Positions 13,950 through 20,137 of a stretch of DNA of 64,000 nt are shown here, piece after piece. How positions within the stretch are numbered: the stretch's first letter is position 1; each line of letters begins with the position of its first letter. The notes under the pieces are model-generated. The model did no database searches. It was not told the DNA's origin and saw nothing but the letters and a program-made list of their open reading frames with translations. The stretch comes from a virus (taxonomy: Duplodnaviria; Caudoviricetes): the IMG/VR virus record IMGVR_UViG_3300049472_000168, positions 1-64,000 of that record, one strand, 5' to 3'. The position numbers and the translations under genes are program-made.

Positions 13950-15569
13950 CTAGCTCCTGGAGAAGTCTGAGATGATCTGAGGTGTAGAGGTATCGAATCC
14001 ACAGATATCCATCATACCGGCATCGTCAGGATTCGCAATAGAGAATTTCGTTGCCGAAGTCGCGATTACTACCAATTTGGCTGGGATCCCAGTCTTTTGG
14101 CGATAATTCTCGATTTCCTTAGAGGCGTGGCGACCAGTATTGGTCTCGTTGTCGGTGTAGACGCAGAAGGTGTCTACGGCCACTTTATTTTTTGCTGCCC
14201 ACTGCATCGGTAGCGAGCAGTCTGTAGCACCGAAAGCGTTATTATGGCATTTTTCCATGGCATCGGACAGACTCATCCCAGGACGAATCTTAAGATCCCG
14301 GAAGGTGTCGGCAAAACCCATGATGTGGTGATTCTGTTCTACGGCTGCCGTAACCATAGACATTGCAGCGGTGGCTTCGTAAGGCCTAATCGGCATCCCT
14401 GCGATACTGTCGGAAGTCATAGACCCCGAAACATCCAGGGCCAGAAGAGTATTCTTCCCCGTCGGCTCCACAGCACCGAAGCTGAGGTAAAAAGCGTCAT
14501 CCAGTGCCTGGACCACACCTTGATCCGGAGTCCAGACCAGGCTTCCTTTAACCCCATGACCGCTGCTGTAGGTCTTCAAGGCAACCAAGACCTGAAGAGG
14601 ATGGACCCTGCCCTTCTTCAAGACCTCCAGGTCGGTGAGCTTGGCTTTGGCCATCTTCTGAGCCGCTGACATCGGCTTGATCAGTCCGATTTCAGTCATC
14701 TTGCCGAGATTTCGGATTAAAGCCGTAGGTCCCATAGCAGGAAGCATGGCAGCCCAGACCTCGGGGTAATTCCGCATCTCTGATGGGATACATTCATGAG
14801 GAAGCTGGTAGGTATCGATGAGCTTGACCAGTTCTTTGACATCCGACTTGGTCTTCATCTGCTTGGCTCGCTCGAAGGCCCAGATCATTTGTAGATCTGA
14901 ATTAGGATGAGGGACCTCGCCTACACTATCCCAACCCTTCATGACCCAGTGCATTACCTCTTTTTGGGAAGCATCCAACTCGTGGTGGACTCCGGGGTGG
15001 GCCAGACGCAGGGCAGTCTTGTGGTTTTCTCCGTTTCGGTTCTGGTACTTTGCCACCTGATAGGCGAATTGTTTCGCCGGGCGATCCATATACCAGCGTG
15101 TGATGGCTCGCATAAATCCGGAACCGAAGCCTCCGAGTTCACGGACTGCTGAGATGTACTGAAGGATATGGGTTCCAGTACGGCAAACCTTGGGGAGGAC
15201 AGAATACGCCATTGCTCGGGTCTCCGGAGACTTCGCCAGCTTAGACGCCATAGCCAATGCAAAAATTGCGGGATCGTTCTTTGGAGCCCGACCACCATCG
15301 CTGATTTCGACGATTGTTTTGATCGTACGCGCCGGGTCTGATTCCAGACACCGCAGGACACAGGCCGCATTCTCTTTGGTCAGCTTCTTTTCGCCAACGT
15401 AATAGGTGCCACCCTCAGAGCCTAGGACTAAGAATCGATTCAGTCGAGCCCAGTCATCAACTTGGAAGACGAAGCCTCCTGTATTGTTGAGGACCTGCTC
15501 TGTGGCAGCCTTGATCTTGACTGAGGTGTTCTTATTGGTTTTTGTCGTCACATGTTTGGCGTATTGCAT
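13950..15569 (-). CDS. rsr: Ro60 / TROVE-domain RNA-binding protein (TROVE + vWA)
   Basis: NNTGGFVF..RLNRFLVLGSEGGTYY, KYQNRNG..H..LRLAHP, ALIRNLGKMT, RVHPL, LLALDVSGSM, GATDCSLPM, YTDNET, GFD. Confidence 0.96.
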   Translation of the reverse strand: MQYAKHVTTKTNKNTSVKIKAATEQVLNNTGGFVFQVDDWARLNRFLVLGSEGGTYYVGEKKLTKENAACVLRCLESDPARTIKTIVEISDGGRAPKNDPAIFALAMASKLAKSPETRAMAYSVLPKVCRTGTHILQYISAVRELGGFGSGFMRAITRWYMDRPAKQFAYQVAKYQNRNGENHKTALRLAHPGVHHELDASQKEVMHWVMKGWDSVGEVPHPNSDLQMIWAFERAKQMKTKSDVKELVKLIDTYQLPHECIPSEMRNYPEVWAAMLPAMGPTALIRNLGKMTEIGLIKPMSAAQKMAKAKLTDLEVLKKGRVHPLQVLVALKTYSSGHGVKGSLVWTPDQGVVQALDDAFYLSFGAVEPTGKNTLLALDVSGSMTSDSIAGMPIRPYEATAAMSMVTAAVEQNHHIMGFADTFRDLKIRPGMSLSDAMEKCHNNAFGATDCSLPMQWAAKNKVAVDTFCVYTDNETNTGRHASKEIENYRQKTGIPAKLVVIATSATKFSIANPDDAGMMDICGFDTSTPQIISDFSRS

Positions 15570-15609: not shown

Positions 15610-15737
15610 TGGAGAAGGATGGAATTGCACCACCGCTATCAGCTTGGATAAGATAATTATCTTCGCGGGGTCCGTGAAGGACAAAGATTTGAAGACAACG
15701 ATTTTGTGCCGACGTGCTACTACTACACAACTTCTCC
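15610..15737 (-). ncRNA. tRNA-shaped Y-RNA-like element A
   Basis: Acceptor GGAGAAG/CUUCUCC-A; D arm GUGU-AGUAGUA-GCAC; stem UCGGC/GCUGA enclosing a ~65-nt Y module; T arm GGUGG-UGCAAUU-CCAUC. Confidence 0.8.
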
Positions 15738-15746
15738 TAAAGTACC

Positions 15747-15813
15747 GCACCCCGCCCCGTATCGGAACCGATATTGGGAAACTACACACCCTTTAAAAGA
15801 TGTGCGGAGGTGC
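15747..15813 (-). ncRNA. Three-way-junction structured element within the ncRNA array
   Basis: GCACC../..GGUGC closing stem with hairpins GCACAUCUUU/AAAGGGUGUGU and UAUCGG/CCGAUA. Confidence 0.45.
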
Positions 15814-15815
15814 TA

Positions 15816-15875
15816 ACGAAATGCAAAGCCCGCCAGGGTTTGTAACCTGCTAAGGAGTCGAACCTTAGATTTCGC
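15816..15875 (-). ncRNA. Permuted (YrlA-like order) tRNA-mimic fragment
   Basis: GCGAAAU/AUUUCGU stem enclosing T arm CUAAGG-UUCGACU-CCUUAG, then a loop-closed acceptor-like hairpin CAGGUU-ACA-AACCCUG. Confidence 0.55.
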
Positions 15876-15877
15876 TG

Positions 15878-15996
15878 TCGCGACCGCTGGAATCGAACCA
15901 GCTCTACTATCTCCAAAAGATAACCGCCTTCAGTTGGGTCCTTGCGGACAAAAATCGAAGCCGGGTTTAAGTGTGCTACCGTTACACTACGTCGCG
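15878..15996 (-). ncRNA. tRNA-shaped Y-RNA-like element B
   Basis: Acceptor CGCGAC/GUCGCG-A; D arm GUGU-AACGGUA-GCAC; T arm GCUGG-UUCGAUU-CCAGC; Y module with GUCC-GCAA-GGAC at the anticodon position. Confidence 0.8.
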
Positions 15997-16000
15997 TAAA

Positions 16001-16057
16001 GAGGACAAAATCGATGCCGGTGTTTTCTAAGCATGATAAACCGACATCAGGGTCCTC
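16001..16057 (-). ncRNA. Minimal free-standing Y-RNA-like element D
   Basis: GAGGAC-CC-UGAUGUCGGU-UUAUC-loop-ACCGGCAUCG-AUUUU-GUCCUC; same module as A/B/C in non-permuted order. Confidence 0.75.
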
Positions 16058-16058
16058 C

Positions 16059-16191
16059 GGTGGAGATGGTTGGACTTGCACCAACGTCCTCGTCTTTACA
16101 ATGAGATAACTATCTTCGATTGGGTCCAAAAAGTTAAATGGACAAAAATTTGAAGACAGATTTTCGCGCTCTGCTACTGAGCTACATCCCC
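16059..16191 (-). ncRNA. tRNA-shaped Y-RNA-like element C (Ala-like acceptor)
   Basis: Acceptor GGGGAUG/CAUCUCC-A-CC; D arm GCUC-AGUAGCA-GAGC; T arm GUUGG-UGCAAGU-CCAAC; Y module insert. Confidence 0.8.
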
Positions 16192-18171: not shown

Positions 18172-18774
18172 CTAGTATTTCCTTGGGCTGTAGTCATCAA
18201 AACCTTCAGGTAGTTTGTACCCTTTTGATGATGTATTGGTGACATCAGTAGATCTAGGCCTGGTCTCAAACGTGGGCTCTGATTTCTGACCATGCAAACG
18301 CTCAGGAGGAGGCTGCATCGACGAAATCAGTTTCTTCACCGATGTATAGGCATTTTCAAAGGCCTGTTTCTTACCATTGAGATATTCAAGGATTGCCTTG
18401 ATCTCGTTGAGTCTTTCCTTGGCAAGTCGCACCTTGGGATCAATCGTAACCATAGCTTCCCTGAGGTCTTGGGACGATTTGTTGTGCCCCTTTTTCTTCA
18501 GGAATTCATCGTTACAGTCCAAGGTAGCTTCTGCAATTGTAACTTTGAGGGCTTCGTCGGCCTTATTTCTCTCATGAGTCACGACGCTAACACACTTATG
18601 CAGGGTTAGCCAGTGTTCGTTGTAGGTTGACAACAGTTCTGGGGCGTTATGAGTGTTGGTTTGCGCCACCTCATGAAGCCTAGACTCCGCCTTAACTACG
18701 GCTGCGATGTCCAGGACAATGGGGGTGCCGTCAACGCTTGGAATGATGTATTTGGATTCTCCGGATTCGATCAT
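18172..18774 (-). CDS. Coiled-coil protein, possible UvsY-like recombination mediator
   Basis: Long helical hairpin; lies between SSB and recA. Confidence 0.4.
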   Translation of the reverse strand: MIESGESKYIIPSVDGTPIVLDIAAVVKAESRLHEVAQTNTHNAPELLSTYNEHWLTLHKCVSVVTHERNKADEALKVTIAEATLDCNDEFLKKKGHNKSSQDLREAMVTIDPKVRLAKERLNEIKAILEYLNGKKQAFENAYTSVKKLISSMQPPPERLHGQKSEPTFETRPRSTDVTNTSSKGYKLPEGFDDYSPRKY

Positions 18775-18793
18775 ATCAGCTCCTCAAAAAAGG

Positions 18794-18873
18794 TTTCCTG
18801 TAGTGTTTAAAGGGGCCGTGAAACGATCAAAAAGCCCGTCCGGAGTTCTCCTCCGGCACTATTCTACAGAAAA
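18794..18873 (-). ncRNA. Duplicated structured element, copy 1
   Basis: UUUUCUGUAG/CUACAGGAAA outer stem; core GUGCCGGAGGAGAACUCCGGACGGG..CCCC..AAACAC. Confidence 0.55.
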
Positions 18874-18876
18874 TTG

Positions 18877-18954
18877 AGAGAGACCTAGGAATCGAACCTA
18901 GCTGTGACGGTCGTCTTAACGGTGCCGTTTGCCTACCCGCTCGGCCAGTCTCTC
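18877..18954 (-). ncRNA. tRNA-like RNA lacking a canonical anticodon loop
   Basis: Acceptor GAGAGAC/GUCUCUC; D arm GCC-GAGCGGGUA-GGC; T arm CUAGG-UUCGAUU-CCUAG; central AACG-GCAC-CGUU. Confidence 0.65.
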
Positions 18955-18960
18955 GAAAAC

Positions 18961-19041
18961 GACCTCAGGTGTGTTTCATGGGGATGAAAGCAACCTTAAA
19001 ACCCGTCCGGAGTTCTCCTCCGGCACCATGCACCTGTGGTC
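18961..19041 (-). ncRNA. Duplicated structured element, copy 2
   Basis: GACC.CAGGU/ACCUG.GGUC outer stem; same 25-nt core as copy 1. Confidence 0.55.
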
Positions 19042-19051
19042 TGATTAAATA

Positions 19052-20137
19052 CTAGTTGTCGTCAAAGGCTGCATCAAGATCTTCTTCTGATGCGGCCTCG
19101 ACACTAAATGTCGCTGGTTTCGGCTGAGCCGGTTTCTGAGGTGGAGTGAACCCCGTCTTCGCCGCTGCCAGTTTCGCGGCTCGACTAGCTGCCAGTCGGG
19201 CTTCAAGCGCTGCCTTTTCGGCTTCAAGTGCTGCCGTTTCAGCATCCTCATCGCTCACCCCAGTGGGATGAAGCTCAACGTCATCTTTGGGATGATCTAC
19301 TGGCTCTTGGTCAACTTCCAAATCGGACACATCTCGGATACCCAGGATTCGATTGACCTCATCAGGATCGTCGGTCTCCATCGAGGCCAGAGCCTGGAGC
19401 TGTTCCTCGGAATATCGAATTCTGGCCTGTTCCTCATCGAAGTCAGGAAGTACCTCAAGTGCGGTTTTGGCAAGCGAGGCATCCAGCATGTGGGCTGGTC
19501 GATCTGTGAGGAACCTTACAGTATCATCGACATCGAATCCAGTACCCCTGCGGCTGAACTGACACCACAACCCGGCGCGTCCGCTCAAAGGCTCGTAGCC
19601 CTCCTTGGTTGCTCTCCGGATTTCTTCCCGCAGCTTCTTGACGCAAGTCGAGTTGAGTCGGAGAACTCCTAGCTTACCGCCTTCGTCGAGGACGTAGATG
19701 CGGTATTTCCCGTCGTGGCCATGGTCTTTAAGCCAGATGTTGTAGGGCTGAACCGCCTTCTGGACCTGGGCCTTGGTACCCTTCTTCTCCAGAATCTTGG
19801 CTTCGACAATCTTGATCTGGTTCTTGACCTCTTCTCGCTTTTCGCAGAGAGGACATTGCTTCGTAATCATACCTCCGTTGCGGAAGTCTTTCTCCTGGAT
19901 ACAGAGAATCGGAACAGACTTCGTCTTGGTCGGGTCCTTGGGATTTCGACCCTTCCAGAAGTGGGTATACCAGAACTGGGTAAAATCTCGACGAGCCCGC
20001 AGCGACTTCATCGCTGGCAAGATGCGGTAGACCACATCGGTATCGGGCTTCAGACTGAGGTTTTCGTAGTTGTTACCTCCAGTGCTGGGGTCATCGAATC
20101 CCTCGGGGAGGCTATAGTTTTCGGCTTGTGATTGCAT
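19052..20137 (-). CDS. Single-stranded DNA-binding protein (gp32-like)
   Basis: YRILP, H..C..CPLCE Zn-type motif, acidic C-terminal tail. Confidence 0.7.
   Translation of the reverse strand: MQSQAENYSLPEGFDDPSTGGNNYENLSLKPDTDVVYRILPAMKSLRARRDFTQFWYTHFWKGRNPKDPTKTKSVPILCIQEKDFRNGGMITKQCPLCEKREEVKNQIKIVEAKILEKKGTKAQVQKAVQPYNIWLKDHGHDGKYRIYVLDEGGKLGVLRLNSTCVKKLREEIRRATKEGYEPLSGRAGLWCQFSRRGTGFDVDDTVRFLTDRPAHMLDASLAKTALEVLPDFDEEQARIRYSEEQLQALASMETDDPDEVNRILGIRDVSDLEVDQEPVDHPKDDVELHPTGVSDEDAETAALEAEKAALEARLAASRAAKLAAAKTGFTPPQKPAQPKPATFSVEAASEEDLDAAFDDN

Follow-up and report, generated by a model that had tools for sequence, protein, structure and literature searches.

A conserved three-way-junction RNA motif of phage genomes that flanks a tRNA-like RNA on both sides in a Ro60-encoding phage

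A stretch of 64,000 nucleotides (nt), hereafter the window, which forms the first part of the 138,265-bp IMG/VR virus record IMGVR_UViG_3300049472_000168 (Caudoviricetes; 84% complete), carries on its minus strand two copies of a structured RNA motif, copies A and B, on either side of a tRNA-like RNA. We regard this motif as almost certainly a genuine, new and conserved RNA class, and comparison of its homologues shows it to be, at the level of sequence, an autonomous and self-contained module that shares its strand with the surrounding genes. Among the functions considered, an RNA-end-forming and possibly self-cleaving punctuation element is ranked first, with a probability of roughly 0.3.

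The motif forms a three-way junction and is about 60-115 nt long; the counts for its positions and their covariation are based on alignment A3 of 73 distinct sequences. The supported helices are nested and comprise a closing stem and two hairpins. The closing stem (P1) has 4-16 bp of free sequence, mostly with G:C as its top pair, and is followed by the 7-nt strand J1/2, N-A-U-R-G-N-G, in which the A, the U and the final G never vary and 72/73 sequences have the central G. P2 consists of 6 bp, sometimes bulged, and ends in a closing pair that is G:C in 68/73. Its GAGAA loop is invariant at the positions G-A-G-A, and the fifth A is kept in 69/73. An AC dinucleotide separates P2 from P3, which starts with GGG paired to YCC or ACCU and carries a loop of 7-70 nt, while the 3' junction strand ends in K-R-A-A-C-A directly 5' of the 3' strand of P1.

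In A3, 93.8% of the paired cells held a standard pair, compared with 62.4% after shuffling and 34-50% when the partners were slid by 1-3 columns. Changes on both sides were observed in 15 of the 18 pairs, including 7/7 in P1 and 6/6 in P2. The covariation of P1 and P2 across the 73 distinct homologues thus substantiates the selection on RNA structure that a first-pass annotation of the window had proposed. The same annotation had placed the RNA on the minus strand, and this assignment holds as well, since G-U pairs are frequent and the first P3 pair, which is G-U in 34/73 sequences, would be an A-C mismatch if read on the opposite strand. Outside the nested helices, position 12 covaries with 129 (A/U 26, G/G 44, G/C 2) and position 14 with 130 (U/A 48, A/G 18, A/U 4). 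The parallel register of these two pairs suggests that they are tertiary contacts and not a plain helix, and their covariation divides the family into three sequence types, with CAUG-GUG...UGAAACA in copy A and AAUA-GUG...UUAAACA in copy B. Three further pairings were considered. A kissing contact of the GAGAA loop with that of P3 was rejected by eye, no conserved UUCUC-like partner being present; a UUUCA-UGAAA pseudoknot was rejected because UUUCA is missing from most members; and CAUG-CAUG pairing holds in some type-3 members only.

The exact 25-nt core shared by copies A and B (GUGCCGGAGGAGAACUCCGGACGGG) gave no match in IMG/VR. A first pattern, in which the loop, ACGGG, UUUCA and CCCC were retained, identified two viral and three metagenome contigs of a single clade (L003, L005, L010, L020 and L054), with compensatory changes in P1, P2 and P3; 46 of the 51 metagenome loci matched by this pattern were chance matches. 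In L054 a second and more divergent copy lies 11 nt upstream of the first, and from it UUUCA and CCCC are seen to be dispensable. The first-pass annotation had listed UUUCA, CCCC and AAACA(C) as shared strings, and all three are indeed present in both copies A and B, but UUUCA and CCCC are not family-wide, being confined to copies A and B and the L003-type clade. A second, strict DNA pattern, ATRGNGNNNNNGGAGAANNNNNNACGGG, was used for the viral loci and matched at least 119 of them, with perfect 6/6 pairing of P2 in 87 among the matches listed.

The consensus fold was derived from alignment A1 (35 sequences), from which the covariance model R1 was built (72 positions, 18 pairs). The covariance-model search, an approach suggested in the first-pass annotation, yielded 74 matches with scores of 34-73 bits, of which 73 were distinct, from 69 sources. 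A pattern scan of bacterial genome contigs gave 77 loci, eight of them real by R1, and R1 itself found nine matches in eight genomes or metagenome-assembled genomes (MAGs) in one-genome-per-species bacterial data. The bacterial carriers were assigned to Acidobacteriaceae, Terriglobus, Polyangia, Planctomycetaceae, Pirellulales, Verrucomicrobiia (two) and Spartobacteria, of the phyla Acidobacteriota, Planctomycetota, Verrucomicrobiota and Myxococcota. Ten pattern matches on nine loci of the Rhodothermales MAG OZ252093.1 belonged to an identical, apparently coding repeat without an R1 match and were discarded as unrelated chance matches; loci L191, L193, L202, L214, L226, L227, L243 and L246 of this MAG represent a repeat with at least nine identical copies. 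Searches of cultured phages by blastn with the region and two family members returned chance matches only (T5-like tRNA-Thr, tail fibres), and a match in a Mesorhizobium phage was rejected by R1.

Rfam 15 (4227 models, with all riboswitch and ribozyme classes included) was used to search for a known class. Nothing overlapped the motif when the window was scanned at the gathering score and at E≤10, and no motif match was obtained at E≤10 for the 271-nt region alone or in scans of 27 other motif-bearing loci (11 + 16), in line with the earlier failure to recognize a riboswitch or ribozyme. No description of the motif was found in the literature searched. A catalogue of 10,006 unnamed phage structured-RNA (csRNA) candidates has been published (PMC10690425), and the motif may already be contained in it, unnamed.

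The layout of the locus in the window is summarized in Table 1. The two open reading frames (ORFs) that border the intergenic gap could not be assigned to a Pfam or PHROG family and have no relatives in viral contigs. Copy A starts about 10 nt past the stop codon of the upstream ORF, and copy B starts 1-2 nt beyond the 3' end of the tRNA-like RNA. On the 3' side of copy B follow, in order, CC, a U6 run, the Shine-Dalgarno sequence GAGGAG and the downstream ORF, which starts with ATG. An intrinsic terminator requires a G+C-rich hairpin with a U tract directly behind it; a terminator scan of the window reported none on the minus strand.

Table 1. Coordinates of the motif copies, the tRNA-like RNA and their parts in the window.
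Feature	Position	Strand	Remarks
Intergenic gap	18775-19051		277 nt; between minus-strand ORFs 19052-20137 and 18172-18774
Copy A	18961-19041	minus	Type CAUG-GUG ... AUGAAACA; R1 match 18965-19037, 69.3 bits, E 3e-15
Copy A, P1	19031-19041 with 18961-18971	minus	Read from sequence
Copy A, P2 hairpin	19007-19023	minus	GAGAA loop 19013-19017
Copy A, AC	19005-19006	minus	Initial GGG of P3 at 19002-19004
Spacer GUUUUC	18955-18960	minus	6 nt; between copy A and the 5' end of the tRNA-like RNA
tRNA-like RNA	18875-18954	minus	Predicted class-II (Ser-like) tRNA mimic between copies A and B
Copy B	18794-18873	minus	Type AAUA-GUG ... UUUAAACA; R1 match 18797-18870, 69.5 bits, E 2.8e-15
Copy B, P1	18864-18873 with 18794-18803	minus	One U-G included
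Copy B, P2	18840-18856	minus	GAGAA loop 18846-18850
Copy B, AC	18838-18839	minus	GGG at 18835-18837

The 25-nt core occurs exactly twice in the window, at 19002-19026 and 18835-18859 on the minus strand, and in none of 100 shuffles; no third copy of the core or the motif was found in the whole 138-kb virus record. The outer stems of the two ~80-nt elements are different and both pair: GACCACAGGUG with CACCUGAGGUC in copy A (11 positions, one A-A mismatch) and UUUUCUGUAG with CUACAGGAAA in copy B (10 bp including one U-G). The first-pass description of two elements with an identical core and different, pairing outer stems is thus accurate. Both copies fold better than shuffled sequences, with z-scores of -3.3 (copy A) and -3.6 (copy B). 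Copies A and B belong to different sequence types yet share an identical GUG-P2-ACGGG core of 25 nt, for which local gene conversion is the simplest reading. Unlike in copies A and B, P2 is not common to the partners of the tandem pairs in L054 and L245. The second tandem copy in the latter, a Verrucomicrobiia MAG (L245:2160-2225, 40.9 bits), has the junction CAUGCUG, a GAGAG loop and AGAGG in place of ACGGG, and may be a decaying copy or a variant subtype.

The element between the two copies had been described as a tRNA-like RNA, and most of a tRNA can be recognized in it. A 7-bp acceptor stem (GAGAGAC/GUCUCUC) is combined with a D arm, GCC-GAGCGGGUA-GGC, of the class-II type that resembles tRNA-Ser, a short variable arm (GAC-GACC-GUC) and a canonical T arm (CUAGG-UUCGAUU-CCUAG). 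Of the anticodon arm only AACGG-CA-CCGUU is left, without the 7-nt anticodon loop. The minimum-energy fold retains the acceptor and T arms. The 3' end is U-CA, so that CCA is not encoded, and a CCA-adding enzyme is not encoded in the virus record. ARAGORN called no tRNA at this position, and the Rfam model of tRNA-Sec aligned with 17 bits (E 0.69; cutoff 47) with an anticodon loop of 1 nt. Because only the collapsed stem stands at the place of the anticodon arm, ARAGORN makes no call and the tRNA-Sec alignment is weak, the middle element is, judged by its sequence, a tRNA mimic incapable of decoding.

The carrier contigs represent about 35 lineages by shared proteins, and are mostly small phages. 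No protein family is common to more than three of these lineages, and the genes next to the motif are unrelated in function (a replication initiator, a helicase, a prohead-protease-like protein and proteins of unknown function), and hence no phage-encoded partner is evident. The motif is usually co-oriented with the flanking ORFs and often starts 2-20 nt past a same-strand stop codon. More than one copy is present in the window, in tandem in L054, L245 and L167, and in L091, where the copies lie 4.6 kb apart.

None of the 46 unique copies has a tRNA called by ARAGORN within 1.5 kb, and a T-arm-like hairpin occurs within 500 nt only for the two window copies and the copy in L104. About 330 nt downstream of the motif in L104 (record G002), we observed a D-arm-less tRNA-like RNA or tRNA 3'-half ending in CCGGG-UUCGAUU-CCCGG-C-GGCUCCA, which may be an attP core. 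A full transfer-messenger RNA (tmRNA) gene is present on a viral contig at L131:962-1425 (Rfam, 87.9 bits); here the motif begins 7 nt past the CCA end and has P1 extended to 13 bp. This contig may represent a prophage junction at ssrA.

One lineage carries the motif in frame within a gene (L095:9977-10042, L082, L257:1459-1524 and L256:1495-1560). The ORF encodes 650 amino acids with Walker A and B motifs and a nuclease-type C-terminal half, which suggests a terminase large subunit, while no Pfam family was assigned to the protein. The motif is located in a variable acidic linker, and homologues of 613-647 amino acids are without the insert of ~25 residues. Among genes that are 74-99% identical, P1, P2 and P3 show compensatory substitutions while the encoded peptide changes, and RNA structure is thus under selection even within a coding region. 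The 5' strand of P1 in these copies is Shine-Dalgarno-like (GGAGG), and the AUG of the junction is in frame.

An RNA-end-forming element is ranked first because the position behind an ORF, a tRNA-like RNA or a tmRNA, the tandem copies and the lack of a partner resemble what is found for phage self-cleaving ribozymes. Hammerhead, twister, pistol and hatchet ribozymes are typically scattered and partner-less, and sometimes tandem, in phage DNA. According to PMC10879173, theta ribozymes, which resemble that of hepatitis delta virus (HDV), lie directly 3' of phage tRNAs and remove their trailers. In a similar manner, the self-contained module would form or mark RNA ends directly behind the upstream unit, most plausibly by self-cleavage that leaves a 2',3'-cyclic phosphate and a 5'-OH. 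In the window, the mRNA of ORF 19052-20137 would then be closed by copy A and the tRNA-like RNA by copy B. With RNase P cutting on the 5' side of the tRNA-like RNA, the mimic without an anticodon would be set free as a separate small RNA. Somewhat less likely again is a more specific proposal, in which phages punctuate their transcripts with small self-cleaving ribozymes of a new class, represented by the motif. The pair in this phage would then cut a tRNA-Ser mimic without an anticodon out of an operon from which Ro60 and tRNA/Y-RNA chimeras are also produced.

Several observations weigh against an end-forming function. The fold is unlike that of any known self-cleaving class, and the ~25 near-invariant nucleotides are more than in most small ribozymes and closer to an aptamer. 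Constitutive cleavage of the copies inside ORFs would cut an essential terminase-like mRNA, which could be tolerated only if cleavage were partial or used for tuning expression. RtcB is not encoded in the virus record. Finally, the motif is present as a single copy in 5/5 large or near-complete phage genomes, which fits one specific regulatory site better than general punctuation.

Partner-less occurrence and one or two copies per genome could also be expected of a cis-acting RNA that binds a conserved host machine, specifically RNA polymerase, and acts as a protein-independent processive antiterminator like put RNA of HK022 or EAR. We consider this function rather unlikely, although the core is conserved in phages whose hosts belong to very different phyla, each genome carries the motif once or twice with no accompanying phage partner protein, and a position inside an ORF would be compatible with it. 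Several copies lie just upstream of canonical terminators: by a strict rule, a terminator is found within 90 nt of 5/46 copies compared with 0.6% of random windows, a control that is lenient relative to one taken from intergenic regions only. The terminators are located downstream of the motif in L074, L126 and L113 (found by script) and in L096 and L238 (found by eye). Most copies are without a terminator nearby. A consistent anti-terminator pairing was sought in L096 and L126 and not found. The put RNA needs no protein and consists of two stem-loops in ~70 nt (PMC9378689), but it is without a closing stem, and R1 gave no match to the whole HK022 genome with filters off (best score 9 bits, E 4.5).

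The many invariant junction nucleotides and the non-Watson-Crick covariation in the core (12/129 and 14/130) would fit an aptamer whose ligand is a metabolite or a nucleotide second messenger and which acts as a riboswitch or, in trans, as a sponge, a function that we likewise hold to be doubtful. Three-way junctions in tandem are known from glycine riboswitches, and some motif copies lie 8-30 nt ahead of a start codon or ahead of a terminator. The downstream genes, however, are unrelated across lineages, neither a consistent expression platform nor a sequestered Shine-Dalgarno sequence is present, and P1 varies in length from 4 to 16 bp. The copies behind the tmRNA, behind the tRNA-like RNA and inside an ORF are also difficult to reconcile with such a switch.

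The location directly behind stop codons, the tRNA-like RNA and the tmRNA would suit a passive 3'-end structure that stabilizes the upstream RNA, whether as a terminator-like element or by blocking 3'-to-5' exonucleases. U-rich tracts follow P1 in 18/46 copies by a lax rule, copy B and those in L207 and L060 among them, and the nearby Ro60 gene links this phage to PNPase-type control of RNA decay (PMC4201824). Neither the fixed GAGAA loop nor the ~25 invariant nucleotides would be needed in a simple barrier, a general stabilizer would be expected in more than one copy per genome, and the copies inside ORFs are away from RNA ends. We judge this explanation unlikely, and less probable than the two preceding ones.

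The Ro60 gene itself is located at 13950-15569 on the minus strand and encodes TROVE and vWA domains (PF05731, 1e-34; PF25045, 9e-58). It lies 3.2 kb downstream of the motif copies on the same strand, thus within the 4-kb, same-strand distance applied to YrlA (PMC4201824), a position shown for this phage only. The motif might accordingly be a Y-RNA-like partner of the phage Ro60, and the cluster an unbundled YrlA-type RNA made of Ro-binding modules and a tRNA-like module; YrlA holds a tRNA-like domain, and another cluster of tRNA-like RNAs stands immediately upstream of rsr. The GNCGAA(N0-1)G motif is nevertheless absent from copies A and B and from the family consensus, the tRNA-like part lacks the permutation found in YrlA, and the family is spread over about 35 lineages of mostly small phages with no shared protein. 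Moreover, the Ro-binding-type module of this phage has a different sequence and is found in cluster 1, which leaves the Y-RNA explanation improbable.

Three tRNA-like genes with normal acceptor, D and T arms were observed at 15610-16191 on the minus strand, immediately upstream of the Ro60 gene. In these genes a shared insert of ~60-70 nt (UCUUC...UUGUCC-loop-GGACCC...CGAAG/UGAAG...UUAUCU) replaces the anticodon loop, and two of the three are called tRNA by Rfam with inserts of 72 nt or similar. The set looks like a group of tRNA/Y-RNA chimeras.

The first-pass annotation had offered a sponge for CsrA/RsmA or another GGA-binding protein, built on the string GGAGGAG. Such sponges (CsrB, RsmY/Z type) carry several GGA motifs in the hairpin loops of one RNA. 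A GGA does sit atop the P2 hairpin and the window has two units, but there is one GGA per unit with its first G in the closing pair, GGAGGAG is specific to this phage with only G-GAGAA-C fixed across the family, and the 5' strand of P2 covaries freely, so that the sponge proposal finds no support and is very improbable. It would also leave ~20 other near-invariant junction nucleotides unexplained, most genomes have a single unit (5/5 genomes checked), and no Csr/Rsm family of Rfam was matched.

Equally remote is an element acting at the DNA level (an operator, a pac or ori site, or a single-stranded DNA structure), for which the inverted repeats, the single copy in most genomes and the positions inside a terminase gene in one lineage and beside replication genes in others could be cited: the frequent G-U pairs are found on one strand only, the flanking genes run in the same orientation as the motif, and free covariation of the stems is incompatible with the site of a DNA-binding protein.

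It is rare for a new RNA class to be at once widespread, strongly conserved and free of a protein partner, and every such class has led to new biochemistry. To our knowledge, only about ten classes of natural self-cleaving ribozymes and about 50 classes of validated riboswitches are known. The motif has the marks of a functional tertiary fold, namely a near-invariant junction and loop, free covariation of the helices and covarying non-canonical positions, and its carriers are many unrelated phages of poorly studied host phyla. With a size of 60-80 nt, it suits direct bench work on mechanism. In the phage described here, it frames an unusual tRNA mimic near a Ro60/Y-RNA locus, which makes the locus a concrete system for how phages make and use non-decoding tRNA-like RNAs.

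Among known RNAs, the orphan motif manA is alike in being phage-borne and strongly covarying, and differs in fold, in consensus and in being represented in Rfam. We also observed manA RNA on two unrelated motif-bearing contigs, at L061:2547-2727 (36 bits, below threshold) and L066:11893-12071 (64.7 bits). Y RNAs (YrlA/YrlB, Yrl1/2) share with the motif a terminal stem formed from the 5' and 3' ends, the neighbourhood of Ro60 and the association with a tRNA-like module, whereas the motif is without GNCGAA, its family appears not to be tied to Ro60 genes and its tRNA-like part is separate and non-permuted. Three-way-junction riboswitch aptamers such as that for glycine are similar in their many invariant junction nucleotides, tandem copies and non-canonical covariation in the core, but the motif has no Rfam riboswitch match, conserved downstream gene or expression platform. 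The put RNA of HK022, considered together with EAR, is of a comparable size (~70 nt), with two adjacent stem-loops, no protein partner and one or two copies per phage, and an element of this kind could act from any transcribed position; put differs in sequence, has no P1 and is promoter-proximal, whereas the motif is mostly found behind ORFs.

Small self-cleaving ribozymes (hammerhead, twister, twister-sister, pistol, hatchet and theta) are alike in size to the 60-115 nt of the motif, in having sequence-free helices around a highly conserved junction, and in their scattered, partner-less and sometimes tandem occurrence. They differ in that none of their Rfam models matches the motif even at E≤10. 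HDV-like and theta ribozymes form a nested double pseudoknot (P1, P1.1, P2, P3 and P4) and cleave at the 5' end of P1, and the topology of the motif, with a closing stem, two hairpins and a 5-nt bulge, corresponds neither to this fold nor to the hammerhead core. Although most of the 46 motif copies are without a nearby tRNA, copy B and the copy in L131 lie directly 3' of the end of a tRNA-like RNA and a tmRNA, respectively, and in this they are placed like the theta ribozymes of phages (PMC10879173).

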